Position numbers and translations under genes: made by a program. Shown in pieces: positions 7,624-47,160 of a stretch of 64,000 nt of DNA. The notes beneath the pieces were generated by a model. That model made no database searches and was not told the DNA's origin. It saw nothing but the letters and a program-made list of their open reading frames with translations. This DNA comes from Deltaproteobacteria bacterium (GTDB lineage Bacteria > Desulfobacterota > Binatia > Binatales > Binataceae), in NCBI GenBank assembly GCA_003161515.1, contig PMOH01000316.1, positions 1,210 to 65,209 of the forward strand. The letters are read 5' to 3'. The number at the start of each line of letters is the position of its first letter. The first letter of the stretch is position 1.

Positions 7624-7633
7624 GGGAAAGCGG

Positions 7634-8920: not shown

Positions 8921-8923
8921 CCA

Positions 8924-9808
8924 ATGACGCGTTTTAAGCTGGGGCAATTGCCGCCCGAACCAGATCCTAAAGCCAAGCTGCTCAAGAACTATCTCGATCG
9001 CAAGGCGATCACACCCCCGGCGACCGAACCGATCGACATGAGCAAGTACGCGGCGAAGTACGACTATGTGATGACTGCCATGATGGCTAACGGGCCTGAC
9101 CCGGTCGCGCCGCTAAAAATCGCGCCGTTCGGAGTTGGCGACTGCGTATTCGCAGCAGCGGTACGCTTCGCTGCCCTTGAAGGGCTGAGCCGGGGGCGTG
9201 TCCTGTTCAAGAACGCGGCTGATATGTGTACCGCCGCGCTCGATGGATACGCGAGCACCGGTTGGGACATCAACCAGACCGACTCGCAGGGCAACAACCC
9301 GACTGACCAAGGCACGATCCCGAACCGCGCTTTCAAGTGGCTCCAGACCAAGGGCTTGCTGTGCTCGAATGGTTCGCGCCACAAGTTCGGCCCGATGCTG
9401 CAGGTCAATCCCCTCGACTTCGCGGAAGTCATCATCGCGATGAATATCGCCCAAGGTATCATGATCGGGGTCAACTTCCCGGCTGCCTGGGACAACTCGC
9501 CGATATGGGACGTGACCAACACGCCACTCGAAGGTGGACACGAGATCCCCGGCTACTCGGACCTGAAGCTGACGACCAGCGGTATCCAGATCGACACTTG
9601 GGGCAACGCGGCGCCGGGGCCGCGCATCATTACGCCGGGTGGTCTCGCGCAGCAATGCAACCAACTCACGGTCATTATCGATCCGCTGGAGTTCGGATTC
9701 GGGCGCCACGGCAAGAAGGCCAACGGAAAGCGCCGGCGCGGGCGGAACATCGAGGGCTTCAACCATGCTCAGTGGCTCGCGGATGTTGCGGCTGACGGCG
9801 GATTTTAG
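8924..9808 (+). CDS. hypothetical protein, possible papain-like peptidase
   Basis: 294 aa. It has a GDCVFAAA Cys-containing motif and a downstream GGHEIPGY, which could be a Cys/His dyad. Speculative. Confidence 0.3.
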   Translation: MTRFKLGQLPPEPDPKAKLLKNYLDRKAITPPATEPIDMSKYAAKYDYVMTAMMANGPDPVAPLKIAPFGVGDCVFAAAVRFAALEGLSRGRVLFKNAADMCTAALDGYASTGWDINQTDSQGNNPTDQGTIPNRAFKWLQTKGLLCSNGSRHKFGPMLQVNPLDFAEVIIAMNIAQGIMIGVNFPAAWDNSPIWDVTNTPLEGGHEIPGYSDLKLTTSGIQIDTWGNAAPGPRIITPGGLAQQCNQLTVIIDPLEFGFGRHGKKANGKRRRGRNIEGFNHAQWLADVAADGGF

Positions 9809-9925
9809 AAAAGCTCCGAGCGCGGGCGTCCGGGCCTAACCGGAGCCTCCGGACTTTGCCAGCCGGTATCTGGCGGCTCGCGCTCGGTTCTTTGATCGTG
9901 CTAAGGGGAGAGGAGGGATACCTAC

Positions 9926-10408
9926 ATGGCACGCGACAAAAAAGGTCGGTTCATCTCGGAGCGCACGCGGATTCGATTGGCGGCAGCGGCGGCTAAGAGA
10001 GCGGCGGCGCTTCTCGCCGTGCCGCACGAGGAAGTAGCCAAAGAGTTGCTGTCCGGAGACACCTACAGTCTCGGAGACGCACCGAATTCGCCGGGCAAAG
10101 AAGCAGAAGCGCCGCTCGACACTCTCGACCTCGAGGCGACGCATCACTCTCCGGAATCCGAAAGCAAGGCATGGAAAGCCATCCTCATCGCTCTGTCGGT
10201 GATCGGGTTGCTATGCGCCGCTGGCTGGTACGCGCTAAATCGCTCGCAGTTGGAGTCGCCCCCGGAGCCGACCGAACTTGTTTCCCCGGCCGCGTCGAGC
10301 GCGAGCGCATCGCCAAGTGATACGCCGACGCCGATGGTGACTCCTTCGCCGAGCGCGTCCGCCACGCCGGTCGATTTTCGCAAATACAGCGAACCGGATA
10401 ACGACTGA
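9926..10408 (+). CDS. membrane-anchored Pro/Ser-rich protein
   Basis: Single transmembrane segment (ILIALSVIGLLCAAGWYAL), then an SPSAS low-complexity extracytoplasmic tail. Confidence 0.35.
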   Translation: MARDKKGRFISERTRIRLAAAAAKRAAALLAVPHEEVAKELLSGDTYSLGDAPNSPGKEAEAPLDTLDLEATHHSPESESKAWKAILIALSVIGLLCAAGWYALNRSQLESPPEPTELVSPAASSASASPSDTPTPMVTPSPSASATPVDFRKYSEPDND

Positions 10409-10418
10409 AGTTGTAAGA

Positions 10419-11060
10419 ATGGCGGCTGCGGTTCCAGAACGACGAGTCCCCAAGGACCTCACTCCCGACGCGTTGCTCAAAGCGCGCGACGAAGCCGAGC
10501 GTCGTAAAAAGGCGTTTAATCTTCGAATCCTGAACGCTAGCTACGAGGACATCGCCAAACAAACTGGCATCCATGTAAAGAGAGTCGGCCGCGAAATCCG
10601 CAAGGCACTCGGCGAGCTCGACGAGATCGATCTGCTCGATCGCCGCAAGCTCGCGGCCGAGCGGCTCGACGCGCTCGAGCGGCCGTTCTGGGCGCGCGCT
10701 CTCGGGGGCGACGTCAAGGCCGGGAATTTCATCCTGCGCTGCGAGACCCAGCGCGCCGAACTGTTCGGGTATGCCGCCGGCAAACCGGATTCACCCGATG
10801 GGCCCCGGCTCGGGGAGATAGCGCGCGGCCTTCCCCCTGGAGCGCGGGCGACGGTCGAACTCTCGAGCGTGTGGCAGAGCCCCGATGTCATCGCCGCGGT
10901 GCAGAAAGCTCGCCGGGAGAAGATGATCAGCGGGCCCAAGGAATCCGCGATCGATGCGAGTTTTATGCGCGGGTCCGATGAGAACGCCGTTGACCCTGAC
11001 GAGCAACTCTACGACGAGGTTCTCGCCGAGGGAGTTGCGCAAGCGAGTGAGTCAGCATAA
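10419..11060 (+). CDS. putative terminase small subunit / sigma-70 region-4-like HTH protein
   Basis: HTH (ASYEDIAKQTGIHVKRVGREIRKAL). Its position a few genes upstream of the large terminase fits a small terminase, but the call is tentative. Confidence 0.3.
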   Translation: MAAAVPERRVPKDLTPDALLKARDEAERRKKAFNLRILNASYEDIAKQTGIHVKRVGREIRKALGELDEIDLLDRRKLAAERLDALERPFWARALGGDVKAGNFILRCETQRAELFGYAAGKPDSPDGPRLGEIARGLPPGARATVELSSVWQSPDVIAAVQKARREKMISGPKESAIDASFMRGSDENAVDPDEQLYDEVLAEGVAQASESA

Positions 11061-11105
11061 AGAGTAAGCGACCAATCTTGGCGACAATGTCGGGAGGATG
11101 CGGGA

Positions 11106-11654
11106 ATGAAAGTGCGGAAAAATGTAGCGCGACTGATAGGGCTAGCTGCAATTATTGCTTTGTTCGGCACGCTCAGCCTCAAACCGGATCCGCTCCGGGT
11201 CTTCCAGACGATCGCCGCCGCCGTAACCGCGACCGTAACCGCGACCGCAACCGCGACCGCAACCGCGACTACGACCGCTACGGCCACGCCGGTTGTCGCA
11301 GTATTTCCCACGCCGACTGTCGTCGCCGCGCCCGCCGGCTGCGCATCTATCGCAGGCCTCGGGCCCTATACCATCGGCGTGAGCTGGTGTCAGGATCAGA
11401 GCCAATCGCCCTACGTGCTCATGGTCTGGAACGGAGTTTCGTTCGTCCGGCCCGCTGCGCTCACGAAAGGCGTCACGCCGCCATCGACCGCACCTGATAC
11501 CGCGCTGTGGCTGAACACCAACGATTATCCGCCGGTGCTCGAACAGTGCAGCGCCTCGACCTGCTCGCCGGCACGGTGCCTAGTCGGAGTTTGCGGCATT
11601 TGGAATCCCCTGATGATTCCAAACTACGGGCCGCTGGCGTCGCCCGTGCCCTAA
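11106..11654 (+). CDS. secreted protein or lipoprotein with (Thr-Ala)n repeat
   Basis: Signal peptide MKVRKNVARLIGLAAIIALFGTLSL. The TATVTATATATATATTTATATP tract is encoded by a 12-bp tandem DNA repeat. Confidence 0.4.
   Translation: MKVRKNVARLIGLAAIIALFGTLSLKPDPLRVFQTIAAAVTATVTATATATATATTTATATPVVAVFPTPTVVAAPAGCASIAGLGPYTIGVSWCQDQSQSPYVLMVWNGVSFVRPAALTKGVTPPSTAPDTALWLNTNDYPPVLEQCSASTCSPARCLVGVCGIWNPLMIPNYGPLASPVP
11224..11285 (+). repeat. 12-bp tandem repeat (GTAACCGCGACC / GCAACCGCGACC) x about 5
   Basis: Tandem iterations are directly visible in the sequence. They lie inside CDS 11106-11654. Confidence 0.7.
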
Positions 11655-12064
11655 AGAAAAACACCCCAAAAAAGGGCGGGGAGTCGATTATTGGTTTACC
11701 TCTAGCGACTTCCCGCCTTGACTTCAGAGCGTTGGCGAATGTGGATTTTCGACTCGGTAGCTCACAGTTATTCTGGGACGGACAATTAGAACTTCCGTGT
11801 CCTCTCTGCCAAGCGCTTAATCTCAAAACTTCAGATCACTCGACCGAGACCTGTCGTAGCTGTAGGCGCTGGTTTAACTGGCGCTGGATCGCTTATCGCA
11901 TGTTCCACGAGTACGTCGATGGCCCGAGCGAGAAACCATCTGACCCCAATGAGCCGATAAGGGCTTGGACCCCGAGCGACGAACTCAAAAGTATGCGACC
12001 GCGCGCGCGGGGGCTTGATGGAAAATATGTCAAAGGCCCCGGAGGCGCAGGCGATGGCGCGTGA
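11507..12064 (+). CDS. hypothetical protein (start uncertain)
   Basis: 185-aa ORF. Its first 148 nt overlap the upstream CDS. No better candidate covers 11655-12014. Confidence 0.2.
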   Translation: MAEHQRLSAGARTVQRLDLLAGTVPSRSLRHLESPDDSKLRAAGVARALKKNTPKKGGESIIGLPLATSRLDFRALANVDFRLGSSQLFWDGQLELPCPLCQALNLKTSDHSTETCRSCRRWFNWRWIAYRMFHEYVDGPSEKPSDPNEPIRAWTPSDELKSMRPRARGLDGKYVKGPGGAGDGA

Positions 12065-12302
12065 CGATTCCTATACCGGCAAGGCCGCATCGATCGTTCA
12101 AGAGGTCGAAGACATCGCAATTTTATTTGGCTGGTCGTTCGAGCGCCTCTACAACGGATTCTGGCAAAGCCCCCGCGGGCTCGCGGCGGTGCTTCTCGAC
12201 GACGATCAGATCGACTCAATCGACGAAAACTACGCCATCATTCGCCCCAAGCAGGCCGGCGGGAAGACCCTCAAATTCTGGCGTGTGACCAATGGCTACT
12301 GA
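12015..12302 (+). CDS. hypothetical protein
   Basis: 95-aa ORF directly upstream of the terminase and overlapping its start. Confidence 0.3.
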   Translation: MMENMSKAPEAQAMARDDSYTGKAASIVQEVEDIAILFGWSFERLYNGFWQSPRGLAAVLLDDDQIDSIDENYAIIRPKQAGGKTLKFWRVTNGY

Positions 12303-13902
12303 GAGTTTCGAATCACTATCTTCCGCCGAGCAGGAGGTTATTCTGACCCGCGCCTGTCCTGACTATTGGCTCGAAAAGACGACTGGCGAAAAGGCTTGGG
12401 CTAGGCAGGTCGAGGTCATGCAGGCGGTTGCGATGCACCCGCGGGTGGCGGTCGCGTCCGGGAATGGAATTGGGAAAACGTGGCTCGCTGCTCGGTTGGC
12501 GGCCTGGTTCCTAAGCGTCTTCTCCCCTGCGACCGTGGTGACTACCGCGCCGAACATGCGTCAAGTGAAAGACCTCCTCTGGAAAGAAATTCAGGTCGTC
12601 GCTGGCAAGGCCAAAGAGAATGGGCATGATCTTGGCGGCGAACTGTTCACCGCGAGTTGGGAATTTCCCGCGCTCAAGAGAAGGGGCATTAGGCACTACG
12701 GCGTCGGCTTCGCCTCGAAAGAATACGACGTCAACCAATTTCAGGGCTATCACAACTCACACATTTTGGTGATAGAGGATGAGGCCGCCGGCATCAGTGA
12801 GCCGGTCGACGAAGGGATCAACTCGATACTCAAAGGCGCCTTCACCCGCTGGCTGAAAATCGGCAACCCGACCACACTCAAAGGGCCGTTCTTCGGAGCC
12901 TTCAAGAGTAAAGACTGGGTCTGTTATCACATTTCGCAATTCGATACCCCGAACGTAAATGCCGTCCCTCCACCGCGAATATTTGAACAGGATCTCGGCA
13001 CGCGCAAAGAAATCATGGAGCGGTTCCTCGATAGCCTCCTCACGATGCCGATCAGTATCGATGGCGTTGTAACCCCGGCAAATATCAAGAGCGACTTCTA
13101 CAAATGGGGCGAAGATCATCCGCTCTGGCAGGCGCGTGTGCTCGGGCAGTTTCCGGATCGGACGGAGGACACCTTCATCGCGATCTCGTGGGTCGAGCGC
13201 GCCGCGGCGGCGACTCGCAATCTGGAAGGCGCGACTATCGACGTCGGTGTCGACGTCGCGCGCTATGGCAGCGCGAACACGGTCTTTGTCGCGCGCATCG
13301 GCGATCGGCCTGCACAGGGAAACGCATTCGCTTGGGAGAAGTACGGTCAGCAGGGCTTGATGGTTACGTGCGGCCGCATTATCCAGTTTATTTCAAAGAT
13401 CCGTGCCTTTTGGAAGGAAGTGGCCCCCGCGAATCTGCCCTGCCCGCTGATTCGAGTCAAAATCGACGCAGTTGGCCTCGGTGCGGGCGCCTACGATCGC
13501 TGCAAGGAGATCTTCGACGGTGAAGAATGGCGCGTGGATGGCCGACGTACCGTCACGGTCCACGAAATGATCGAGCATCGCACCGCGCGCAATCCCATCC
13601 AATACACCAACGCTACTACCGAATGGTGGGCGCTGACAGCACGAGGCTTCGAAGCCGGGGACATCTCCGGCGAGGTCTTCGCTGACAAAGACCTGATGGA
13701 CGAATTGGTCTCGCGCAAATACGAATACGGGTCCGATGGGAGAATGCGAGCAGAGAGCAAGGAGGCCATGAAGACACGCGGCGAGGCTTCACCGGACTTC
13801 GGCGACGCCGTGGTGATCGCTTACGCAGACATACCAATGAGTTTATTCGATGATGAGGAGCCGTCATCCGGCCTACACGCAGGTCTTGTCTACGGCAGGT
13901 AG
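12292..13902 (+). CDS. terL: terminase large subunit
   Basis: Walker A (GNGIGKTW) and Walker B (ILVIEDEAAG) motifs. The C-terminal half is RNase-H-like nuclease (IDAVGLGAGAYD ... DFGDAVVIA). It lies directly upstream of the portal. Confidence 0.8.
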   Translation: MATESFESLSSAEQEVILTRACPDYWLEKTTGEKAWARQVEVMQAVAMHPRVAVASGNGIGKTWLAARLAAWFLSVFSPATVVTTAPNMRQVKDLLWKEIQVVAGKAKENGHDLGGELFTASWEFPALKRRGIRHYGVGFASKEYDVNQFQGYHNSHILVIEDEAAGISEPVDEGINSILKGAFTRWLKIGNPTTLKGPFFGAFKSKDWVCYHISQFDTPNVNAVPPPRIFEQDLGTRKEIMERFLDSLLTMPISIDGVVTPANIKSDFYKWGEDHPLWQARVLGQFPDRTEDTFIAISWVERAAAATRNLEGATIDVGVDVARYGSANTVFVARIGDRPAQGNAFAWEKYGQQGLMVTCGRIIQFISKIRAFWKEVAPANLPCPLIRVKIDAVGLGAGAYDRCKEIFDGEEWRVDGRRTVTVHEMIEHRTARNPIQYTNATTEWWALTARGFEAGDISGEVFADKDLMDELVSRKYEYGSDGRMRAESKEAMKTRGEASPDFGDAVVIAYADIPMSLFDDEEPSSGLHAGLVYGR

Positions 13903-13983
13903 AATCGATGGAGCAGTCCCATCTTTAAGACAATCGGCAATAAGATCACTTTCGCGAGCTGGGCGACCGCGCGCTACAAAAAG

Positions 13984-15672
13984 TTGGATCTATACGACCG
14001 CCTGTTAGACGGAACCTTCTACGATCATTTGCCCAATTCGTTTTATGAAGAGACGGGACAACGAAACCACTACATCCCGCTGCATGAGCGCCGGCCGTCG
14101 GTCCAGTACAATCTCTGTGCGTTCGTGGCCAGGAAGATCGCGCGCAAGCTCTTCGCGGGACGCCACGCGCCTCGCTTCGCGCACGAAAACGACGACCTCA
14201 AGGAAGCGGCTACCGCACTCGCGCGCGAGGGCTTCCTCGAGCAGAAGCTCCTTCGTGCAGCGGTCTGGGGCTCCGTCGGCGCCGTTTGCGTCACTTTCAA
14301 AATCGAGCCCGATGGCGCCGAACAGCAGCGCATCGTATTCGAGGTCTGGCGCGCGAAATGGTGCGAGCCGGAATTCGACAAGCTCGGCGAGCTGAACTCG
14401 CTGCGCATCGCCTACCTGACTTATGGCTACCAGTTCAAGGCGATCTACGGGGTCGAAAAGGACGATGAGGGCAAGCCGATCGATGATGGCGCCCTCTATT
14501 GGCATGTCTCGGACATCGACACGCAGCAATGGATTGTCTACCAACCGAGAGCCAAGGACTCATGGCCCCCTGGCGATGAAAAGCCACTCTTGGCGATGGA
14601 CGAGTTGAAGCAACCTACGCCGCACAACTTCGGGTTCGTGCCGGCGCATTGGTTCGTGAATCTGTCGAGCGGGGATGACATCGACGGCCAATGCCTGTTC
14701 AAAGATGCGATCAACACGGCGATCGATATCGACTACACCATCAGCTCGCTCGGCCGCGGCGTCCGCTACAATGCCTCGCCCGAGGTAGTGCTAATCGGCA
14801 AACGCAAGAATGCCGACCTGGACGAACGCACCGGGACGATGGTGATCCGCGGGCCGACTCACGTCATCGAGATGGAAGGCACCCGGCGCGATTCCGCCGG
14901 CAACCAGATCGGCGGCGGTGACGCGAAGCTCCTCGAAATGAGCGGCCAGGGGATTGCCGTCGGCCTGCAGCTCGTGGAGACGCTCCGGAAGTTTGCGCTG
15001 GAATCGATAGCCGCCTCCAGGAAGGACCCCGACAAGATAGGCGGTCCCCAAAGCGGCCGTGCGATGGAGATGCTCGACGACGATCCGCTCGATCTCTATG
15101 ACGAGATGCGCCAGACGTACGGCGAGAACGGATCCCTGCCTCTGATGCGCAAGGCGATGCGCGCGGCGGCGAAGGTAAAGCACGCCTTGCTTGAAGGCGT
15201 TAGTCTCACCGACATTGATGCGCTCGCTTACTACTGGCCGAAGCCGTACCAGCCGGGCGCGCAGGAGATATTCCAGCTTGGGCAAGGACTTGTTGCGCTC
15301 ACCACGCCGATTCCGGACGAGCACGAAACTGCTCCTGGGCCTGCTGTACCCGGCGCCGACGGGAAACCGGGGAAGCCCGGCGCGGCGCAGCAGACTGGCA
15401 CGGTCGCGATGCGGCCGATTATGACGATCGAGAAGGCGTCCCGCTTGGTCGACACTATGCTCGACGTTCCGCCGGACGTTGCGACTATGCCCGCGCAACA
15501 GGAGCCCGCGCCCACCGGAGACGATGGCGGGCATCCTTCTCCGGAGCCGGTCGAGACGCCGGAGCACGACAAAGAAGACGAAGGAGACGCCCTCGCGCGC
15601 GCGTCGAAGCTCTCGCAGCCTAAACCGAAACGTCCGAGCGGGCGAGCGCCACGCAAGAAGGTAAGTAAGTGA
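13984..15672 (+). CDS. portal protein
   Basis: 562 aa, immediately after terL, with an acidic/Pro-rich C-terminal tail. The call rests on position and size. Confidence 0.6.
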   Translation: MDLYDRLLDGTFYDHLPNSFYEETGQRNHYIPLHERRPSVQYNLCAFVARKIARKLFAGRHAPRFAHENDDLKEAATALAREGFLEQKLLRAAVWGSVGAVCVTFKIEPDGAEQQRIVFEVWRAKWCEPEFDKLGELNSLRIAYLTYGYQFKAIYGVEKDDEGKPIDDGALYWHVSDIDTQQWIVYQPRAKDSWPPGDEKPLLAMDELKQPTPHNFGFVPAHWFVNLSSGDDIDGQCLFKDAINTAIDIDYTISSLGRGVRYNASPEVVLIGKRKNADLDERTGTMVIRGPTHVIEMEGTRRDSAGNQIGGGDAKLLEMSGQGIAVGLQLVETLRKFALESIAASRKDPDKIGGPQSGRAMEMLDDDPLDLYDEMRQTYGENGSLPLMRKAMRAAAKVKHALLEGVSLTDIDALAYYWPKPYQPGAQEIFQLGQGLVALTTPIPDEHETAPGPAVPGADGKPGKPGAAQQTGTVAMRPIMTIEKASRLVDTMLDVPPDVATMPAQQEPAPTGDDGGHPSPEPVETPEHDKEDEGDALARASKLSQPKPKRPSGRAPRKKVSK

Positions 15673-16199
15673 ACCCTCAACTAATCCAGGTACGCGAGCC
15701 CGAGATCGGGTCCAAGGGCTTTCTCATCGAGAAAGATGGGCTCTTCGTCTTATCGACCGGACCGGGATTGTTGCGCGGTATCGCGTGCACCCACGCGGGA
15801 TCCGGAATGCTCGTGGTGCACGACGGGGTGCCTACTTCGAATGGCTTCTTCGAGAATCGCGGACACCGGCAGATGGCGGCCGGCAGCAGCGACGAGATCT
15901 GGCGGTGCGCGCGGTGCGATGGCGCTCAATGCCCGATGTGTTTTGGTGCCGGGGAGATTGCTCATGCGATCGAACGCGTCCCTTGCCCGGTAGGACCTCG
16001 GCATTGTTCAGCCTGCAGGGGCACCGGAATAGAGGGAGACTACTGGTCACGAAACGGCCGCGTGATGATGCGGCTGAATCAAATGGGGATGTGGATGTTC
16101 GATGCGGGGTTTCACCACGGCCTCTCGATCGCAGTTGCCGGCGGAACCCCATCGGTGCACATCATCGCGACGATCACTTGGCTGACGCATGGCGACTAA
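15669..16199 (+). CDS. DnaJ-type zinc-finger (CxxCxGxG) protein
   Basis: CARC, CPMCFGAG and CSACRGTG repeats typical of the DnaJ cysteine-rich domain. The start overlaps the portal stop. Confidence 0.45.
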   Translation: MNPQLIQVREPEIGSKGFLIEKDGLFVLSTGPGLLRGIACTHAGSGMLVVHDGVPTSNGFFENRGHRQMAAGSSDEIWRCARCDGAQCPMCFGAGEIAHAIERVPCPVGPRHCSACRGTGIEGDYWSRNGRVMMRLNQMGMWMFDAGFHHGLSIAVAGGTPSVHIIATITWLTHGD

Positions 16200-16458
16200 A
16201 CAAAAAGCACATCGAAAGCCGGGCAAGGTTGTGAAGTTGCACGCGATCGACGGGCAGCATGGGGTCCACGCGACGCTGGCCAGGCTCTATCGGAATTTAG
16301 AGAAGGATTTTCCGGGCGCCAAGCAAGTCTTGGTCGTGATTCAGAGTTACCCCGACAAGAACCACGAATGCGAATGGGCGACGGTTACTAACAATCTGAC
16401 GCGGGCTGAAAAGCTCTATTTGTTGGAGATGGGGAAACGGGTGATGTTCGGTGACTGA
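16189..16458 (+). CDS. hypothetical protein
   Basis: 89 aa. Chained to its neighbours by overlaps. Confidence 0.35.
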   Translation: MATKQKAHRKPGKVVKLHAIDGQHGVHATLARLYRNLEKDFPGAKQVLVVIQSYPDKNHECEWATVTNNLTRAEKLYLLEMGKRVMFGD

Positions 16459-16753
16459 GTTGTTCACACCGGCCGGGCCCGGAAGCCTCATGCGATCGGT
16501 AACGATCGATGATGTCGGCGTCTTCCACGTAGCCCGTCGGACCTGCGAGCTGTACTCGGTCGAGATTATGAGCGGTTGGGGCAGACTCAGGGCGAGCAAT
16601 GGACGCGGTCGGAGCCTCTGGTATCAGCCGTCCATTTTCACAGGATCGTTTGTGATTGGGTGCGAGGCCGAAGAAGGATTGATCGTGGAGATCCAAGGTG
16701 GACCGCCGACGGTGAACGTCAACTTTAGAGAGAAAACGCGCGACCTAGTGTGA
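16451..16753 (+). CDS. hypothetical protein
   Basis: 100 aa. Overlapping-coupled to its neighbours. Confidence 0.35.
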   Translation: MTELFTPAGPGSLMRSVTIDDVGVFHVARRTCELYSVEIMSGWGRLRASNGRGRSLWYQPSIFTGSFVIGCEAEEGLIVEIQGGPPTVNVNFREKTRDLV

Positions 16754-16986
16754 TTCAAATCAAGTCCCCAATGACAGGTTCGATACAGCTCTTTTTGCGC
16801 GAGAACGGGGCGACGGTCGCGGCTGGGGACAAGATCATCGGCATCGAGAGTATGAAGATGATGAACGAGGTAAAGACGCCGGCTGCGGGTCGGCTGAGTT
16901 TTAAGGTACGTCTTGGACAAGTAGTGAATCGCGGACAAGTTCTGGCGGAGGTGGATGATGGCGCTACCAATCAAACTAACAGCTAG
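16750..16986 (+). CDS. biotinyl/lipoyl-domain (BCCP-like) protein
   Basis: 78 aa with IESMKMMNEV. This matches the (E/S)(A/S)MKM biotin-attachment hairpin flanked by a hybrid-barrel pattern (GDKIIGIE ... GQVVNRGQVLAEV). Confidence 0.5.
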   Translation: MIQIKSPMTGSIQLFLRENGATVAAGDKIIGIESMKMMNEVKTPAAGRLSFKVRLGQVVNRGQVLAEVDDGATNQTNS

Positions 16987-17266
16987 CGGGGCGGGGATCG
17001 CGGCGAGTGCACAGCTCCAAAGTTCGGGGTTAGTGGTCGCCATTAAAGGCGTGGCTGGCGTCGCGGCTCTCGATGCTGCGGTCTGGGTCGCCCCGCAGAA
17101 CAACGCTACTACGAACGGCGACGAGATCGCGCATATGAAAGCGTCGGCCGCAGGGACAGACACACTGGCGGTGCCAAACGGCATAGCTGTCGAGTCGGGT
17201 CAGTACCTGCTGGTGAACTTTGTCGACACTGACGCCAATCACGAAGTCTGGATATATTTCGACTGA
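16955..17266 (+). CDS. hypothetical head-module protein
   Basis: 103-aa ORF. Its start overlaps the upstream CDS. Confidence 0.35.
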   Translation: MMALPIKLTASGAGIAASAQLQSSGLVVAIKGVAGVAALDAAVWVAPQNNATTNGDEIAHMKASAAGTDTLAVPNGIAVESGQYLLVNFVDTDANHEVWIYFD

Positions 17267-17288
17267 TAGTCGAATAAGGGAGAGAAGG

Positions 17289-18041
17289 ATGTTCATACAA
17301 GGCTTCTTCGGTAGAGAGTTGGACCGACGGATGTTGCTGCTTGAGGGCGAAGGCGAAGGTGGTGGGGGAGGAGGAGCTGGCGGCGATCCTCCTGCCGGCG
17401 GTGGCGCACCCGCAGGCGGAGGCGGAGCGCCGCCAGCCGCTGAGAGCGGCGAGGTGGATATCGCCAAGTTGCCGAAAGCAGCTCAGGAATACATCCAGAA
17501 AATCCGCGGTGAGTCCGCGAGTGAACGCACTAAGCGAATCGCTGTCGAAGCCGAGCGCGATCGCCTGTCGAAAGAGAAAAAAGACAGCGACGACAAAGCT
17601 TCCGTCGAAAAAGGCGAGTTCAAAACCCTCTACGAGAATACCAAAAAAGAACTCGATACCGAACGCACCGCGCGCCGAGCACAGACCATCGACGGTGCGA
17701 TCCGCGAGGCTGCCGCCGCCGCTGGTATCTTAGATCCCGACCTCGTCACTCTCATCAAGCGCGAGACCGTCCAAGTAACCGATTCCGGTCAGGTCGCCGG
17801 TGCCCGCGAGGCTGTTGAGGCGTTCAAAGCCGAGAAGCCCAATCTCTTCAAGGCTGCTGCGCCTGCTGGCGGTGGCGGGGGAGGCGGCGGTGGTCCTACC
17901 CCTCGGGGGACCGGGCCCCGCAGTCCCGCCCCGGCTGGTGATGGCGGCGGCGGCGCACCGAAGGATGTCGGCACTTTGGAGCAGAAAGAGTATAACGCCC
18001 ACAAAGCTCAGACGCTTCGCAGTCTGCGAAACGTACGGTAG
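17289..18041 (+). CDS. scaffolding-like protein
   Basis: ATG at 17289 with an AAGGGAGAGAAGG RBS. It has a Gly-rich N-terminus, a charged coiled-coil core (AERDRLSKEKKDSDDKASVEKGEFKTLYENTKKELDTER) and a Gly-rich C-terminus. Both composition and position fit a scaffold. Confidence 0.45.
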   Translation: MFIQGFFGRELDRRMLLLEGEGEGGGGGGAGGDPPAGGGAPAGGGGAPPAAESGEVDIAKLPKAAQEYIQKIRGESASERTKRIAVEAERDRLSKEKKDSDDKASVEKGEFKTLYENTKKELDTERTARRAQTIDGAIREAAAAAGILDPDLVTLIKRETVQVTDSGQVAGAREAVEAFKAEKPNLFKAAAPAGGGGGGGGGPTPRGTGPRSPAPAGDGGGGAPKDVGTLEQKEYNAHKAQTLRSLRNVR

Positions 18042-18051
18042 GAGGGCCGCC

Positions 18052-18705
18052 ATGAAAAGCATACCTAGTTGGCTATTGGCACTTTTAATCTTGCTGACAC
18101 CGGTGACGGCTATGCCGCAAAGCGGCTCCTTCACCGCGCGCGGCTACACATCCAGTGATCGGAGTGTAGGCGCCGTACGAAGCGGCAGAATCAGCACGCA
18201 CATCGGTACTCACGCCCATCTAGTTTGTCGCGACCGCAGCGGAAAGGTGGTTTGGACCCGCGACGCCGATAACATGCTGACCACGGTGGGCGCGAATCTA
18301 TATCTGACTGATACGATCGTGAGCGGCGTCTCGTCGCCAACTTGGTACGTCGGACTGCTTTATGGGACGAGCGTCGCGACGTTCGCGACTGCGGATACCA
18401 TGTCGTCGAACGGCTGGGCTACCGGCACCGGCGGTGGGGAAGTTACCGGCACGCAGGTCACCAACTCGACGCGGCCGGCGTTTACCCCAGGCAGCGTTTC
18501 GGCCGGAAGCGTCAGCAATACCGGATCGCCGGCGGTCTTCACCGGCAACGCCACGGTTACCCTTCAGGGCTTTATCTTCGTGAATAATTCGACGCTCGCA
18601 GGCACGACCGGAACTTTGATGGGCGAGGGGACTTTTACTGCCGCGCCGATCGCGGCGGGCTACACCATCACCGTAACGGTGACCGATAACGTAACCCCTG
18701 GTTGA
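18052..18705 (+). CDS. signal-peptide protein (Thr/Gly-rich beta-type)
   Basis: Signal peptide MKSIPSWLLALLILLTPVTA. Start is ATG at 18052 after the scaffold stop. Confidence 0.45.
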   Translation: MKSIPSWLLALLILLTPVTAMPQSGSFTARGYTSSDRSVGAVRSGRISTHIGTHAHLVCRDRSGKVVWTRDADNMLTTVGANLYLTDTIVSGVSSPTWYVGLLYGTSVATFATADTMSSNGWATGTGGGEVTGTQVTNSTRPAFTPGSVSAGSVSNTGSPAVFTGNATVTLQGFIFVNNSTLAGTTGTLMGEGTFTAAPIAAGYTITVTVTDNVTPG

Positions 18706-20696
18706 GAGCTAGCCCGATGCGGCGTTGGGGAATAATCGGCGTTCTGCTTGCGCTGCTCCTGTTTTGGATCGGCAATGCCAGCGCCGGCGTCAAGTTCTTC
18801 AGTGGCTTTGAGACGGGCGATTTTAGCGAATGGTCATCAACCACGGGTTCACCTGGCGTAGTTACATCACCCGTAACACTTGGTGGCTATTCGGAACAAA
18901 CTACTTGGGGCTCGGTAAACTATGCGGTAAGCGGTAGCGTTCTGAGTGGCACAACAGGGGTTTTGCGGTTTTCGTTTAATACCAATGCAGCCTCACCAAC
19001 TACTACCAATCAGATTGTTTTTACTCAGATTTTTAATACCTCCGCTCAGGTTCCTGCGGCAATCCGGCTGCAAACTGACTCGACTGGGAATCTCACTTTC
19101 GGGGTTAGAAGCCTTGCCGGCACTTTAGGAAACTTCACGCTCCAACCCAATACCTGGTACACGATAGAACTAAAGTGTCTGGTCGGAACTACGACGAGCA
19201 ACGGTACGGTCGAAGCACGGGTCAATGGGTCTGTAGTCTTTACAACTAGCTCCACCAATACCGGTACTGTCAATCTGGACCACATATGGCTAGGCCCGAT
19301 GACCAATCCGGGGGGATCGCTAACCGGCCACCTGTGGTTCGACGATGTTATGGTCCGCGACGATCAATATCCCGGCCGCGGTTATTGCATCGCGCGACAA
19401 GGCGTCACTGGTACTCCTACCTATACAGGTTGGACCGCGAATGGCTTGAGTACCGCAGCTTTGAATTGGTCGGAGACGCCCTACAACGCGACCGATAATG
19501 AAAGCACGACTACGGCGTCGACGCCGGAACAGAGCATGCTGATGGGCTCGTTCAACTCCGCGGGATCGGCCTCGGAAGGCAGCGGCGTCCTGACCAGCGC
19601 GGCTACGATCAACGCCGCCAAGACGGCGATGGTCGCTCAGTCCTCTTTCACCACCTCCAAGGCATTACAGATTCTCGATCGCCTCAGCGGCTCAGACACT
19701 CTCACCACCGTCACCGCGACCTCGAGCGACGCCTACTACGACGGCGGAATCTATACTCCTACCTATGCCAACCTGACTTCATCCAGCACCGAGATCGGCG
19801 TCAAGAACACCGGCACTGGAACCGGGACCGCGCGGGTTGAGGATATGTGGGAGATGGTCGATTTCGCATCGACGGTCCCGGTATCGAGCTCGTTCGGCAA
19901 TGGCGGTTCTGTCACGGCTTCGAGAGCGGCGACCGTATCGAAGTCGAGTCCCTTCGGCAACGGCGCGCCTATCACCGGATCGCGTGTCGCAAGCCTCGCG
20001 CGTTCTGCGCCATTTGGCAACGGGGGGATCATCAGTGGAGCGCGCGCGCCCAGCACGCGACCCTCGGGTTCGTTTGGAAATGGAGGCTTGGTCTCAGGCG
20101 CGCGGGCGGCGGCCGTCGCCAAGACCCCCAACTTCGGTAACGGCGGATCGGTCCTAGGATCGAGCGCCGAACAGCTAGCGAGGTCGGGCACCTTGGGCAA
20201 CGGGGGCATTGTCGCGGGTTCTAGATCGGCGTCACTCACGAGGTCCGCCGCATTTGGGAATGGCGGGACGATCTCTGGCCTCATCCATAAATTAGTTGTG
20301 CTATTCGGTTCTTTCGGAAATGGGGGCGGTATGGCAGCAACACGCACGGCCAAAGTTACAAAGTCGGGTTCGTTCGGTCATGGTGGCGTACTTCTGAGTT
20401 CGCGGGCCGTCTCGGTCGCACGGGGAGGCAACTTCGGGAATGGCGGCCTGATCTCAGGGTTGCGCAATCTGTTGGCGCGAATCGTTGCATTCTTCGGCGG
20501 GGGCGGTTCGGTGATTGGGAATGCTACCGCGACCAAGACCCCGACCCCGGTGGCGACCCCGACCCCGGTGGCGCCGATCGTTAATCTGACAATGCCGATC
20601 TATCCGACGGTTTACGAAGACCCCGCGATGTGGCCGACCGTGCCTTTGACAGCGCCGCTTTATCCGAGGATCTATCTTGAAGCGAGGATGCCCTGA
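18702..20696 (+). CDS. signal-peptide protein with about 12 tandem FGNGG repeats
   Basis: Signal peptide ...LLFWIGNASA. The N-terminal roughly 200 aa may be a lectin/LamG-like beta domain. These are followed by about 12 repeats of roughly 17 aa (xS.FGNGGxxxGxRAxSxx) and a TPTPVATPTPVAP tail. Confidence 0.5.
   Translation: MRASPMRRWGIIGVLLALLLFWIGNASAGVKFFSGFETGDFSEWSSTTGSPGVVTSPVTLGGYSEQTTWGSVNYAVSGSVLSGTTGVLRFSFNTNAASPTTTNQIVFTQIFNTSAQVPAAIRLQTDSTGNLTFGVRSLAGTLGNFTLQPNTWYTIELKCLVGTTTSNGTVEARVNGSVVFTTSSTNTGTVNLDHIWLGPMTNPGGSLTGHLWFDDVMVRDDQYPGRGYCIARQGVTGTPTYTGWTANGLSTAALNWSETPYNATDNESTTTASTPEQSMLMGSFNSAGSASEGSGVLTSAATINAAKTAMVAQSSFTTSKALQILDRLSGSDTLTTVTATSSDAYYDGGIYTPTYANLTSSSTEIGVKNTGTGTGTARVEDMWEMVDFASTVPVSSSFGNGGSVTASRAATVSKSSPFGNGAPITGSRVASLARSAPFGNGGIISGARAPSTRPSGSFGNGGLVSGARAAAVAKTPNFGNGGSVLGSSAEQLARSGTLGNGGIVAGSRSASLTRSAAFGNGGTISGLIHKLVVLFGSFGNGGGMAATRTAKVTKSGSFGHGGVLLSSRAVSVARGGNFGNGGLISGLRNLLARIVAFFGGGGSVIGNATATKTPTPVATPTPVAPIVNLTMPIYPTVYEDPAMWPTVPLTAPLYPRIYLEARMP
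19880..20470 (+). repeat. tandem roughly 51-bp coding repeats (FGNGG units)
   Basis: The FGNGG pentapeptide recurs about 12 times at roughly 17-aa spacing in the translation. The DNA periodicity is visible (ttcggcaa(c/t)gg(c/g)g...). Confidence 0.65.
20538..20573 (+). repeat. perfect 18-bp tandem duplication ACCCCGACCCCGGTGGCG x2
   Basis: Seen directly in the sequence. It encodes TPTPVA x2. Confidence 0.8.
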
Positions 20697-21073
20697 TGAA
20701 AACTCTCAAAAGACTTGGCTTCTCAATTCCGCTCGCCCTGCTCCTCGCTTTTCCGACGTTCGCGGCCCAGCAGCAACAGGTCTATGTCGCCGGGGCGAAG
20801 GGCGTCGTCCTCAACATCACCCCGAACACCGCGACCCAGCCGCCGGTAAATTTAACTGGGGCGACGGTCACCCTCGTAATCATCTCGCCAATCAGTGTGC
20901 GCCATGTGGTCACAGCGACGGTCGCCAACGGTGGGACGAGTGCAACCTACACTACTCTCGCAACGGATTTCCCTACCGCCGGCGCCTACCAACTGCAACT
21001 CGTTGCGCAGTGGGGATCGGGGGTGCTCATATCGAGTGCGGCCTTCAATCTCACGGTGAGCCCCGCTCTCTGA
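20696..21073 (+). CDS. signal-peptide small protein
   Basis: Signal peptide MKTLKRLGFSIPLALLLAFPTFAA and a beta-rich body. The start overlaps the upstream stop (ATGA). Confidence 0.45.
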   Translation: MKTLKRLGFSIPLALLLAFPTFAAQQQQVYVAGAKGVVLNITPNTATQPPVNLTGATVTLVIISPISVRHVVTATVANGGTSATYTTLATDFPTAGAYQLQLVAQWGSGVLISSAAFNLTVSPAL

Positions 21074-21337: not shown

Positions 21338-22708
21338 ATGTCGAGCCCAGGCACTTTCGTAAATTTCCCGCCGCAACTCCTTGGGATGTTGCAGCAAAAT
21401 TTCCTCGATCGCGAACTCGAGGAAGGTCTCGATTCCTATCTGGCCTACCGGCGCGAAGCGGTCCAGGAGACTATCCCAGCGCGGATCGGCGCGACCCTCA
21501 CTATGACCAGAAAGGGGCGTAAGACCCCGATCACGCAACCGCTCGATCCGACCCAGGTCGGCACCAACCTCGACAATGGGATGACGCCCTCGACGTTCTC
21601 CATCGAGCAGTACAGCTTCTCGATGAAGGAATGGGCGGATACCGTCGATACCGATTTGATGGGCGAATTGGCGGGCATAGCCAATCAGCTTATCGCCAAC
21701 TCGCGGAACAACGGCGTCCAAGCCGCGCAGTCGATGGAGCGCATCGCGCGTAATGATTTGTTCGCCGCATACATGAGCGGCAACTCGCGCGTCCTCGCCG
21801 TCAACTCGCAGACGTCGATCCAGGTCGACGATATCCGCGGCTTCGGCACGGTCCTCGTAAACGGCACACCGCAGGGTGTGAGCTCGGCGACTCCGTTGGC
21901 GATCACCGAATACAACGATTCCGGAACTTTGGCGACGGCCACGCAGGCGCTCAACGTCACGGGCGTCGCCCCGGACGCGACGAACGTGAGCTCCACCAGC
22001 ATCACCGGTGGGCTGTCGGGAGTGCTGACCTTGGCGGCCGGCGCGGCCAATACGATCCAGGTGGGCGACTCGGTCATCTCGAACAATGCCCCCAAGGTGT
22101 TCCGGCCGTTCGGCAAACGCCTGACGAGTTTGCTAAATGGCGCCGACGTTCTCACCATGTCGATCGTCGATGATGTCCGGGCCTATCTGCTGGATAACGG
22201 CGTTCCGCCGATGCCCGATGGCACCTATCACATGATTTTGGATAACACCTCGATGCGTCAGTTGAGGGCCGATCAGGACTTCAAAGTCCTGTTCGCAGGG
22301 CGCGAGGAGACTCCGGAGTTTCGCGGCGGCGATATCGTGCGCCTGCTTGGCATAACTTTCATCCCCACCACGGAAACCTTTGTCCAAAATCCCGGCTCCG
22401 GCGTTGGGGTGCGAGTACGCCGGCCGATCATCATGGGGGCCGAGAGCTTGATGCAGGGTAACTTCGAAGGGCTGGACATCTGGCTCAATCGAGAGGGCGT
22501 CAATCCGATCGGCGAGATCATGCTGATCGATAACGTCGCTCAGATTGTGAGGCCACCGCTCGATCGCCTGCAGCGCAACATCGCGCAGACCTGGACTTGG
22601 ATCGGAGACTTCGCGGTCCCGACCGACGTCACCGCCACCACAGACACTATCCCCACCGCTAGTAACTCCTTGTTCAAACGCGCAGCGGTGATTGAGATAG
22701 CTGGCTGA
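21338..22708 (+). CDS. major capsid protein candidate
   Basis: 456 aa, the largest head-module ORF, downstream of the scaffold. No signal peptide. The call rests on size and position only. Confidence 0.45.
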   Translation: MSSPGTFVNFPPQLLGMLQQNFLDRELEEGLDSYLAYRREAVQETIPARIGATLTMTRKGRKTPITQPLDPTQVGTNLDNGMTPSTFSIEQYSFSMKEWADTVDTDLMGELAGIANQLIANSRNNGVQAAQSMERIARNDLFAAYMSGNSRVLAVNSQTSIQVDDIRGFGTVLVNGTPQGVSSATPLAITEYNDSGTLATATQALNVTGVAPDATNVSSTSITGGLSGVLTLAAGAANTIQVGDSVISNNAPKVFRPFGKRLTSLLNGADVLTMSIVDDVRAYLLDNGVPPMPDGTYHMILDNTSMRQLRADQDFKVLFAGREETPEFRGGDIVRLLGITFIPTTETFVQNPGSGVGVRVRRPIIMGAESLMQGNFEGLDIWLNREGVNPIGEIMLIDNVAQIVRPPLDRLQRNIAQTWTWIGDFAVPTDVTATTDTIPTASNSLFKRAAVIEIAG

Positions 22709-27083: not shown

Positions 27084-29006
27084 ATGGGTCAGATCATTGT
27101 TAATGGTGGGAGCTTCAACGCGGCTGGTCTGCAGGCCGACGATCTCTACATTCAGATTATTCCGCCGCCTGCGTCGGTTGTGGGCGTGCCGGTCGACGTC
27201 GTCGGAGTAGTGGGAACCGCGTCGTGGGGACCGCTCAACGCGCCGACGTTACTCGGGACTCCGGGCGACGGTGCTCGAAACTTCGGACCCATCCCGGTCT
27301 GGGGCAGCGGAACGATCGACCTGCACGATTTGGCGACTGAAATCGTGATGCTCTTCCAGCAGGCGCCATCCCAGGCGCAGCTCCAAGTTTGGGCCTCGCG
27401 TATCAGCGATGGTACTGACGCCCCGGCATTCGGATCAGTCATGGACGGCGAGGGTACTCCGGTGGCCGGCGGCGTTGTCGAGGCGCTCTACAGCGGTATC
27501 GCAGGCGACCAACTCTCGTTGACGATCTCTCCGGGAGCCTTGGCCAATACCTTCAACGTCGTTATCGGCGGTTTCCCCGGCGTGCCGGCGGAGCTGTTCC
27601 CGAACATCCCGAACTCAGCGGGAAGCTTTTGGCAGAACCTCGCGAATGCGCTCGCGCTGGGCCAGTCCGGTATCCGGCCGCCTTCTCAATTCGCGCGCTT
27701 CATTCCAGGAACGCCGACGGAGGTTCCCACGGAGGCGCCCACCCTTTCGCCGGCGCCAGACGGAACGCATACGCAGTTCACCTTCACTCTCGCGAATGGT
27801 CCCGTGCAGCAGGGAACTCTCATTCTGACCGATAGTCACGGAGTGATCTTCGCTGACTCTGAGGGCAACGGCACGCTACAGGGCGTCGGCGGGACCGGAA
27901 CTGTCAACTATGTGACCAAGCAAGTCGCGCTGACCTACTCGGTCGCTCCGATAACCGCTACCACGATGGCGGCGGATTACGACTACATGGTGGCCAATAC
28001 CCACGCTCCGGTGGCCGGCTCGACGCCTCTCGCAAACGGCGCCGACGGGCGCGCCGGTGTGAACACGGCCGCTTTGCTCGGCAGCGACGCATCGCTTCCG
28101 AAAACTGGTCTGTATGCGTTGCGCAGCCTCAATCCCGCGCCAAGCATGGCTTACCTCGCCGGCATGACGGATGGGACGATCGTCTCGAATCTTCAGGGCT
28201 TCGCCGACAGCGAGGGCGTTGCGATGGCGTTCGCCTTCCCGACCGGAACCTCGAGCCAAGCGGCGGTCACCGCGAAGCAGGGCTACGGCATCCTCGACTT
28301 CGAGATGCTTTGGTTGAAGGACTGGATCTATTGGTACGACCCGGTGAACCAGCAGGTCCGGCTCGTGCCGCCCTATTCCACGATTCTCGGCCGCACCGCG
28401 ACTCTGCCGCCATACGTCTCGCCCGGAAACAAGCAAGTCTTCGGGATTATCGGGACCGAGCGGAACAGTCCGTACAGCGGGAACATTCCTTATTCGAACG
28501 CTGAGATTGGGCTCCTAGAGTCGGCCGGCATCCTGTTCGTAACGAACCCCATTCCGGCGGGACAACAGTGGGGCATCCGTCATGGGCAGAACGGAAATCC
28601 CGTGCCGCCGGCTGATGACGTTGCGTACACCCGGATGACGAATATGCTGGCGCAGTTGATGAACCGCATCCTTGGCCAGTTCGTCGATCAGCCGCAGAGT
28701 CAATCGCCGAAGGATCCTACCCGCGATGCGATGAAGACGATTTCGAATGCCGAGCTCCAGTCCCTCCAAGACCTCGGGATGATCGATACGCAGGATATGA
28801 ATGGAGGACCTGGCTACCTGGTCGTCTGCGATCTGACAAACAATACGCCGGCCCAGATCGCCGCGCGCTACTCTTCCATCGCCTGGAGAGTGGTTTACCT
28901 GAGTAACATCCGATTCCTGATCGGTTCGCTTCAGGGCGGTACGACGGTGGTCACGCAGGGTAACAGCCAGTCGCAAGCGCTGGCGGGACAGGGACTCTCG
29001 GTCTAG
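27084..29006 (+). CDS. contractile tail sheath protein
   Basis: 640 aa, directly upstream of a 163-aa tube-sized ORF. This is the canonical sheath-tube pair. Confidence 0.65.
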   Translation: MGQIIVNGGSFNAAGLQADDLYIQIIPPPASVVGVPVDVVGVVGTASWGPLNAPTLLGTPGDGARNFGPIPVWGSGTIDLHDLATEIVMLFQQAPSQAQLQVWASRISDGTDAPAFGSVMDGEGTPVAGGVVEALYSGIAGDQLSLTISPGALANTFNVVIGGFPGVPAELFPNIPNSAGSFWQNLANALALGQSGIRPPSQFARFIPGTPTEVPTEAPTLSPAPDGTHTQFTFTLANGPVQQGTLILTDSHGVIFADSEGNGTLQGVGGTGTVNYVTKQVALTYSVAPITATTMAADYDYMVANTHAPVAGSTPLANGADGRAGVNTAALLGSDASLPKTGLYALRSLNPAPSMAYLAGMTDGTIVSNLQGFADSEGVAMAFAFPTGTSSQAAVTAKQGYGILDFEMLWLKDWIYWYDPVNQQVRLVPPYSTILGRTATLPPYVSPGNKQVFGIIGTERNSPYSGNIPYSNAEIGLLESAGILFVTNPIPAGQQWGIRHGQNGNPVPPADDVAYTRMTNMLAQLMNRILGQFVDQPQSQSPKDPTRDAMKTISNAELQSLQDLGMIDTQDMNGGPGYLVVCDLTNNTPAQIAARYSSIAWRVVYLSNIRFLIGSLQGGTTVVTQGNSQSQALAGQGLSV

Positions 29007-36874: not shown

Positions 36875-37275
36875 TGGATCTTTTTTTAGACTACGGAGCG
36901 GATCTAGTGCTCGACCAGAATGGCGGGATGCAAACTGCCGTGGGTTGGGATGAAACCAGGCAAAGGATTCTCCGCGACCTCTGTACTAACTCGCAGTCTA
37001 TTTTGCCTGACGGGTCTCCCGTTCAACCTGAATATATTTATGACACGAGTTACGGCCGCAATTTTCGGGTCTTAGTCGACCAGCCCATCGGCGCCGCATA
37101 TCGATCGCAACTGTTGCAGGCGGTTTTCGCAGCGGTGATGGTGGACGTGGCGGTGAATTCTAACGTCCCGCCGGGCATTCGGCTGATACGCCCCGACGTC
37201 CGAACCCTATTGGTCATAATCTCCGTGCCGCTGCAGAATCAGACCGTCGGTACGATCGCATTGCAGGTGACCTGA
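36874..37275 (+). CDS. baseplate wedge gpW/gp25-like protein
   Basis: 133 aa. Size and position immediately upstream of a J-sized gene fit the conserved V-W-J order. Confidence 0.4.
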   Translation: MDLFLDYGADLVLDQNGGMQTAVGWDETRQRILRDLCTNSQSILPDGSPVQPEYIYDTSYGRNFRVLVDQPIGAAYRSQLLQAVFAAVMVDVAVNSNVPPGIRLIRPDVRTLLVIISVPLQNQTVGTIALQVT

Positions 37276-47093: not shown

Positions 47094-47160
47094 ACCCTGA
47101 TCAAGTAACATGCGCGATGGACCGAATCACGTATGCGTCCGTCAATTCGGAGCAACCCTG

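Follow-up and report, generated by a model that had tools for sequence, protein, structure and literature searches.

The 64,000-nucleotide stretch of DNA analysed here (hereafter the window), from a contig of the Binataceae, holds a temperate soil myovirus that carries, inside its late head block, three consecutive forward-strand open reading frames (ORFs) whose products all begin with predicted Sec-type signal peptides. ORF1 (18052-18705, 217 residues), ORF2 (starting at TTG 18702 or ATG 18717 and ending at 20696) and ORF3 (20696-21073, 125 residues) lie between the gene for the scaffolding protein (17220-18041, forward strand; PF06810, E=3.9e-16; phrog_194, E=3.7e-15) and that for the major capsid protein (MCP; 21338-22708, forward strand; phrog_1357, E=2e-20), which agrees with the positions and the placement given in an earlier, sequence-only reading of this locus. 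The 664 residues which that reading assigned to ORF2 apply to the TTG start, and from the ATG the protein is 659 residues long. We tentatively propose that the three products are Sec-exported, fibre-derived binding proteins carried as mobile cargo of the late operon, a reading that we place somewhat below an even chance.

Three signal-peptide proteins inside the head operon

By sequence reading, ORF1 is preceded by a Shine-Dalgarno sequence (AGGAGG, 18040-18045, forward strand, 6 nucleotides ahead of its ATG); it starts 10 nucleotides behind the scaffold stop codon, and the reading frames overlap by 4 nucleotides (ORF1/ORF2) and by 1 nucleotide (ORF2/ORF3). As the signature of a Sec substrate cleaved by signal peptidase I we took a positive n-region, an uncharged hydrophobic h-region of 7-16 residues, and small residues at positions -3 and -1. 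A rule-based scan together with direct reading revealed this tripartite design at the N-termini of ORF1 (MKS-IPSWLLALLILL-TPVTA/M, the slash marking the predicted cleavage site; residues 1-20, 18052-18111), ORF2 (MRR-WGIIGVLLALLLFWIG-NASA/G; 18717-18785) and ORF3 (MKTLKR-LGFSIPLALLLAF-PTFAA/Q; 20696-20767), in line with the earlier claim of Sec-type N-termini ending in VTA, ASA and FAA, and also in a fourth protein of the window, of 1724 residues, that is described below. In all three ORFs the n-region is positive, the h-region spans 12-16 residues and the c-region follows a small-x-small pattern; the h-regions are as hydrophobic as those of bona fide signal peptides (mean Kyte-Doolittle value of 2.4-3.3 over 11 residues). 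Since this rule is crude and flags ~12% of the ORFs of the window, three positives in a row are not decisive alone.

A signal peptide is kept in 18 of the 18 close members of the ORF1 family (ORF1 and its 17 closest homologues), and likewise in all ORF2-like (8/8) and ORF3-like (6/6) proteins of the gene cassettes described below. The peptide sequences themselves have drifted, those of the ORF1 relatives being mutually unalignable and ending mostly in Ala-x-Ala/Gln, and the homologues of ORF3 (61% to 28% identical) each have their own canonical signal peptide before a conserved mature start. Given that the feature is conserved across diverged homologues, the signal peptides are not a product of chance. 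Moreover, two ORF2 homologues that lack a signal peptide, P0001 and P0002, start (MAVKFFSGFETGD and MALINTFTGFETGG, respectively) exactly at the predicted cleavage site of ORF2 (ASA/GVKFF), and the P0001 locus is the structural region of a podophage-like contig. Hence, the signal peptide of ORF2 seems to be an add-on to a domain that is cytoplasmic elsewhere.

We also considered whether translation could bypass these segments. ORF2 has no in-frame start codon between ATG 18717 and the conserved VKFFSGFETGD, and its hydrophobic segment must therefore be translated; a start that skips the signal peptide is impossible for ORF3 as well. In ORF1 such a start is possible at ATG 18112, directly after the predicted cleavage site (VTA/M) and behind a weak GGTGA. 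Since Gln occupies this position in most homologues, the start is not conserved, and only in this phage could ORF1 conceivably be made without its signal peptide. Two other export classes were rejected. The Tat (twin-arginine translocation) signature, a conserved S/T-R-R-x-F-L-K followed by a weakly hydrophobic h-region, does not fit, as the two arginines of ORF2 are not kept in its homologues (MRAVRY in L010, MRATRV in L006, MRKAF in P0029) and the h-regions are strongly hydrophobic, and no Cys stands at position +1, as a lipoprotein would need. Cys-rich members are frequent in the cassettes (8 Cys in 152 residues; 35 in the 1724-residue protein), in keeping with oxidative folding outside of the cytoplasm.

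Behind its signal peptide, ORF1 consists of a disordered linker and a beta-sandwich core (residues ~48-217), which is mostly predicted with a local distance difference test score (pLDDT) above 80 in an AlphaFold2 model with a mean of 78. ORF1 matches phrog_8123 (E=5e-10), and a search of 5.8 billion proteins yielded 21 homologues, the 17 closest of which are 42-77% identical to it and all have a hydrophobic N-terminus, while the four distant ones and a homologue in Acidovorax phage AP1 lack a signal peptide. A profile of the family (A3) aligned over 149 residues (E=2.5e-16) with chain 26la_U of the PDB, the 'Structural protein' gp08 of Pseudomonas phage KPP25, whose gene lies among virion protein genes. 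ORF1 alone had no match in Pfam; two distant members of its family, P0023 and P0024, reach PF23140, the fibre I protein gp80 of phage GP4, with 27.2-27.6 bits (cut-off 27). Profile similarity across the ~150-residue core thus places the beta-sandwich of ORF1 in the same sequence family as KPP25 gp08 (PDB 26la/44nx) and gp80 of the Ralstonia podophage GP4 (PF23140). A Foldseek search of the ORF1 model against BFVD returned annotated tail-fibre proteins together with many uncharacterised proteins of phages and archaeal viruses. Unlike KPP25 gp08 and GP4 gp80, which are parts of the virion tail or neck and carry no signal peptide, ORF1 and its 17 closest relatives have a signal peptide and a linker, and are encoded in a cassette with ORF2-like and ORF3-like genes.

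ORF2 starts, after its signal peptide, with variable all-beta domains (18786-19889) that are 37-44% identical to P0001 and P0002 over ~54% of the query, and these presumably form its ligand-binding part; without a signal peptide, such domains occur on podophage-like contigs. They are followed by the FGNGG repeat array (19890-20549; residues 392-611 counted from the ATG), a presumed stalk. The sequence-only reading had recognised these tandem repeats and described about 12 units of roughly 17 residues; there are 11 units of exactly 20 residues without indels (consensus xFGNGGxxxGxRxAxxxxSx). The units share on average 48% of their DNA and 40% of their amino acids; with DNA identity only this high, they appear to be old and maintained at the protein level, where selection acts. 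The array itself is a rare, uncharacterised repeat, with only 23 matches at E<=1e-3 among 1.84 billion representative proteins. It is followed by a linker with TPTPVA twice in tandem (20537-20573), and the perfect 18-bp duplication that had been reported there was recovered by Tandem Repeats Finder (period 18, 2.1 copies, 100% matches).

No family for ORF2 was found in Pfam, PHROGs, NCBIfam, PADLOC or the PDB sequences, and tblastn against cultured phages gave no match; a word-indexed protein search, saturated by low-complexity candidates, returned P0001 and P0002 only. Several known architectures were rejected. A curli (CsgA-like) amyloid gave no Pfam match at E<=0.1, and the FGNGG consensus lacks the Gln ladder of the curlin repeat (Ser-X5-Gln-X-Gly-X-Gly-Asn-X-Ala-X3-Gln). 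Neither a trimeric autotransporter with a YadA-type anchor nor PEP-CTERM-type sorting was matched in Pfam or NCBIfam by ORF2 or by its L021 and L010 counterparts, and the tail of ORF2 is Pro/Tyr-rich, not hydrophobic. The fusion of an ORF3-like domain to the C-terminus of the ORF2-like proteins of L011 was unsupported as well (best domain E=0.007).

ORF3, the constant member of the cassette, has a small beta domain after its signal peptide. Its match to the Ig-like Kre9_KNH family is below threshold (17 bits against a cut-off of 24.6 bits), and an Ig-like fold is therefore questionable. Homologues were found in L021, L012 and L006 (E=2e-14 to 2e-3), all with a signal peptide.

Exchange between sister phages and spread among late operons

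Comparison with a sister phage, assembled on one contig (loci L009, L010 and L014), revealed a feature that does not figure in the sequence-only reading, namely the exchange of ORF1 and most of ORF2. In blastn, the two phages are 99.3% identical over 8059-18044 and 99.2% from 20583 onward; the sole divergent segment of the head region is the island between these positions (18045-20582, forward strand). The identity stops within the Shine-Dalgarno sequence of ORF1 and resumes at the constant C-terminal tail of ORF2 (last ~38 residues, ending in LTMPIYPTVYEDPAMWPTVPLTAPLYPRIYLEARMP; 20583-20696). At the protein level, ORF1 is 48% identical to its sister counterpart, which has an insertion of ~100 residues, and ORF2 is 44% identical, whereas the large terminase (TerL), the portal, the scaffold (99.6%), ORF3 (99.2%) and the MCP (100%) are 99-100% identical. 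The sister counterpart of ORF2 (1217 residues) has over 20 'KGG'-type repeats and, at its N-terminus, two additional domains. In a more distant relative (L018, MCP 80% identical), identity falls to 30% for ORF1 and 23% for ORF2, and the stalk of its 675-residue ORF2 counterpart is a Ser/Asp-rich low-complexity region; despite these different stalks, the ORF2 tail is present in both the 1217-residue and the 675-residue protein. These alignments suggest a constant part, made up of ORF3 and the ORF2 tail, and an exchangeable part, made up of ORF1 and of the N-terminal domains and stalk of ORF2.

Only one other locus diverges strongly between the sister phages, and it encodes the fourth signal-peptide protein, which had been missed by the sequence-only reading. 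This 1724-residue protein with 35 Cys (41831-47005, forward strand), located after the tail-fibre gene and before the endolysin gene, begins with MDRTKLGTR-ILFAVVMLLMLA-SSARA/D (signal peptide MDRTKLGTRILFAVVMLLMLASSARA, then D), with GAGGTG 4 nucleotides upstream of its start; an alternative GTG start after the signal peptide has no Shine-Dalgarno sequence and was rejected. The gene is 97% identical to that of the sister phage up to 43290, beyond which similarity is lost, such that the N-terminal ~490 residues of the protein are conserved and the C-terminal ~1100 (two thirds) are replaced. No family match was found for it. The canonical tail fibre (39910-41844), which has no signal peptide, is 99.4% identical in the sister phage. 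Given that the two divergent loci are both signal-peptide genes, while the tail fibre is invariant, rapid turnover appears to be tied specifically to the exported proteins.

ORF1-like and ORF2-like genes, usually with an ORF3-like one, form a portable cassette. The order is constant (ORF1-like, ORF2-like, then usually ORF3-like), small Cys-rich signal-peptide proteins are sometimes added, and the ORF2-like proteins share one layout: a signal peptide, variable N-terminal domains, a Gly-rich stalk of 20-residue repeats and a short Pro-rich tail. We found five phage contexts: between scaffold and MCP (the window, L010 and L018); between portal-MuF and an S78 protease in a Candidatus Binatus prophage with an HK97-type capsid (L004/L006); between TerL and Portal_Mu, which are adjacent genes in phage Mu, in two Mu-like phages (L012 and L023/24); between portal and a Mu-like protease (L020); and beside the tail-fibre gene of a 107-kb phage contig (L007/L011). 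In L012, five consecutive genes encode signal-peptide proteins, the cassette being extended (8900-10416) by proteins of 124 residues with 7 Cys and of 381 residues with a collagen-like GPTGPSGPPGPTGPTGP stretch and 13 Cys.

The sequence-only reading had suggested looking for the block in related phages. Ralstonia phage Raharianne, the closest cultured capsid relative (MCP 44.6% identical), has its scaffold-like gp26 directly before the MCP gene with no block in between, and elsewhere the block occurs at at least five positions in unrelated late operons. The cassette thus separates genes that are neighbours in related phages, has five insertion points and has spread among unrelated phages, as is expected of a moron. 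The survey covers ~10 loci, and since few further ones were found (two in genome contigs, one in IMG/VR, two in metagenome contigs), the ratio of phage to chromosomal copies rests on this number.

Close relatives of ORF1 occur in 2 of 185,579 species-representative genomes, both of the Binataceae. One Binataceae contig of a metagenome-assembled genome (L021) carries an intact four-gene version, comprising a small Cys-rich signal-peptide protein and ORF1-like, ORF2-like (~14 FGNGG units) and ORF3-like proteins, and no phage head genes were found on this contig. The cassette is flanked by genes for a ROK kinase, a xanthine/uracil permease and an ATP-binding cassette (ABC) exporter on one side and for a periplasmic DsbA/SurA-like oxidoreductase on the other; it lies on the 5' side of a tRNA-Leu gene, on the 3' side of which an integrase element is located. 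Nothing argues more strongly than this copy that the cassette can function in the absence of a virion. Its FGNGG units (7190-7998) are 60-83% identical at the DNA level, with periods of 60 and 120 nucleotides (a 120-nucleotide super-period), compared with ~48% in the window; because they are still similar as DNA, the array seems to expand and contract, and the stalk of L021 to have expanded recently.

The surrounding phage genes

The late genes of the window follow the order of a myovirus: TerL (12292-13902), portal (13984-15672), scaffold and MCP are followed by the sheath (27084-29006), the tape measure (30923-33025), baseplate J (37275-38444), the tail fibre, and, after the 1724-residue protein, a GH108 endolysin (47110-47676). 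An integrase (55171-56028) is the basis for calling the phage temperate. In the gene calls of relatives, the scaffold starts at the equivalent of window position 17289, compared with 17220 here.

Several neighbouring genes deserve mention. Right behind the portal, 15669-16199 encodes a 176-residue protein, 100% identical in the sister phage, with two CxxCxGxG motifs resembling a DnaJ-type zinc finger and a weak PHROG match to an antiterminator Q-like family. Between portal and scaffold, a 78-residue protein (16750-16986; 94% identical in L010, 70% in L018) has a biotinyl/lipoyl domain (PF00364, E=5e-13) with the canonical biotinylation motif of the biotin carboxyl carrier protein, IESMKMMNEV; it is a biotin-carrier-like protein within a phage head operon. 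Just 5' of the late genes, a 506-residue fusion of a Glyco_transf_7C glycosyltransferase and a Sulfotransfer_4 domain (7400-8920; E=2e-32) is a candidate modifier of a surface glycan or virion protein. Just 5' of the terminase region, a 182-residue ORF (11106-11654) with the hydrophobic N-terminal segment MKVRKNVARLIGLAAIIALFGTLS and no family match could encode a membrane or lysis-related protein. In the sister phage, an HNH endonuclease gene is inserted right after the capsid gene (L010, 16657-17502); it is absent from the window, where the junction is clean (22742/22743).

Possible roles of the putatively exported proteins

According to the reading that we tentatively favour, phage fibre proteins would have gained signal peptides, and the resulting cassette would then have spread horizontally. 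It would be read through together with the late head genes, and its products would be translocated to the periplasm, cut by signal peptidase I and folded there; being exported and folded outside the cytoplasm, they would have no role in building the capsid, which takes place in the cytoplasm. A constant base may be formed by ORF3 with the C-terminal 38 residues of ORF2, a stalk of variable length by the FGNGG array of ORF2 with its 20-residue units, and the exchangeable part that sets specificity by the beta domains at the N-terminus of ORF2 and by ORF1, which resembles a fibre tip. As the most likely target we favour a ligand in the envelope or outside the cell, for instance a phage receptor or a surface polysaccharide, because of the chromosomal copy, the accessory distribution and the fact that the cassette turns over independently of the tail fibre of the phage. 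Receptor masking, exclusion and adhesion are possible modes of action, at the time of lysis or, in the case of the chromosomal copy, in ordinary cells. The trio had no PADLOC match to known anti-phage defence at E<=0.01.

The earlier interpretation as secreted or periplasmic cargo is retained in part. The conserved signal peptides, the absence of the block from Raharianne, its variable positions and the chromosomal copy speak for it, while the strict label of a moron fits poorly with the lack of a bracketing promoter or terminator, the coupling to the scaffold gene, the native G+C content and an ORF3 that evolves like a head gene. Moreover, that interpretation did not include the ancestry of the three proteins, each of which can be traced to a virion family of the fibre or decoration type.

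Known phage proteins resemble the trio in single respects. PblA and PblB of Streptococcus mitis phage SM1 are fibre-type proteins that act outside the virion as bacterial surface adhesins; they have no signal peptide and reach the surface via permeabilisation by holin and lysin, whereas the Sec signal peptides of the trio would give direct export. T5 Llp and T4 Spackle are phage-encoded signal-peptide proteins of the envelope that block receptors or incoming phage, but they are small, early-expressed and unrelated to the trio in sequence. T4 Hoc and T5 pb10, Ig-like capsid decoration proteins without a signal peptide, are comparable in that a small protein with a beta domain is encoded beside the capsid gene, and the attachment of Hoc through its C-terminal part parallels that proposed for the ORF2 tail; decoration proteins of the Hoc, pb10 and gpD type are, however, cytoplasmic and carry no export signal, whereas all three products of the trio have signal peptides. 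We know of no described case in phages of envelope interference or adhesion by exported copies of fibre proteins.

A number of observations weigh against the cargo reading. The trio is translationally coupled to the scaffold gene, and a consensus scan limited to sigma-70-type signals found neither a sigma-70-like promoter nor an intrinsic terminator bracketing 18052-21073 on the forward strand. The island has a G+C content of 0.590, compared with 0.589 across 12292-47005, and its G+C at third codon positions (GC3) also equals that of the rest of the phage. The head module holds the cassette in four of the five phage contexts, and ORF3 seems, from its identity in L018 (61.5%, alongside 62% for the scaffold and 65% for TerL), to evolve at the rate of the core head genes. 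The copy in the L021 chromosome may be an orphaned or domesticated remnant. How a periplasmic protein would reach ligands on the outer surface before lysis is not obvious, as no secretion apparatus is encoded nearby. Finally, export and cleavage of the products are predicted from sequence features, both the target and the assembly from a constant base and a variable tip are inferred, and the AlphaFold2 model of ORF2, with all-beta secondary structure in its N-terminal domains, has too low a confidence (mean pLDDT 40) for a fold search.

The head-module position, the rate of ORF3, the lack of recognised signals and the native composition would all fit a true accessory of the head as well. That the trio forms virion fibres matured in the periplasm is an explanation that we consider doubtful, though it is the most serious of the rivals. 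ORF3 would then sit on the capsid and hold ORF2 by its constant tail, with ORF1 and the N-terminal domains of ORF2 as distal adhesins. Export and folding, including any disulfides, would lead through the periplasm, and the fibres would encounter finished particles only at lysis or once the holin has opened the inner membrane, a two-compartment assembly. Such fibres would explain the position in the head module, here directly upstream of the MCP gene, the coupling to the scaffold gene with no signals of its own found, and the head-like rate of ORF3. A tail that stays constant while the distal part varies is reminiscent of modular fibre exchange, all three proteins belong to virion-type families, and the 1724-residue signal-peptide protein also has a fibre-like constant N-terminus and a variable C-terminus. 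On the other hand, a literature search found no description of signal peptides on fibres of the structural module of tailed phages, and hence no precedent; an intact cassette lies in a chromosome without capsid genes; its position relative to the capsid gene varies among phages; and it is absent from the closest cultured relatives. Rather unlikely, too, in our view, is the broader proposition that a tailed phage builds part of its virion in two compartments, in which ORF1-3, as head fibres, and possibly the fibre-like 1724-residue protein would be Sec-exported, folded or oxidised in the periplasm and docked onto particles assembled in the cytoplasm only when the holin opens the inner membrane or at lysis, with the exchangeable parts of ORF1 and ORF2 setting what the particle binds.

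Improbable, by comparison, is a moron of lysogenic conversion, expressed in the lysogen from an unrecognised promoter to provide a new surface adhesin or an exclusion factor like Lom and Bor of phage lambda, with the position in the late operon being incidental. The phage is temperate, the copy in the chromosome must be expressed independently, and the cassette has spread horizontally among unrelated phages. Like Lom, Bor and morons generally (PMC3594210), the trio is exported by prediction, lies in or beside the late region, is present or absent among related phages and is spread horizontally. However, morons are defined as independently transcribed cargo (PMC3594210) and often deviate in composition, whereas the trio is separated from the scaffold gene by 10 nucleotides, has overlapping reading frames and matches the phage in G+C and GC3; that no promoter or terminator was recognised is weak evidence, given that Binatota promoters are unknown. 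In addition, the products of the trio are fibre-like and are neither outer-membrane barrels nor lipoproteins.

It is very improbable that the N-termini are not export signals but helices of cytoplasmic decoration or head-fibre proteins that serve in oligomerisation or are removed during maturation, as the position in the head module and the virion-type folds might suggest, since the full tripartite Sec architecture is present, most family members have Gln after Ala-x-Ala, the hydrophobicity of the h-regions equals that of bona fide signal peptides, no prohead protease was found within the head module of the window, and the homologues without a signal peptide simply lack the segment.

Products of the structural operons of tailed phages are assumed to be cytoplasmic. 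Here, a set of fibre-type proteins that bears export signals is conserved, mobile and rapidly exchanged, and its cassette is shared by late operons of a number of unrelated phages in the poorly known soil phylum Binatota. Since its junctions are defined and constant (18045 and 20582), the segment with ORF1 and ORF2 represents a natural plug-in module of specificity. If, as in the cargo reading, the envelope is where the proteins act, exported copies of phage fibres would be interfering with receptors or mediating adhesion; if they become part of particles instead, the rule of a wholly cytoplasmic assembly of tailed-phage virions would be overturned.

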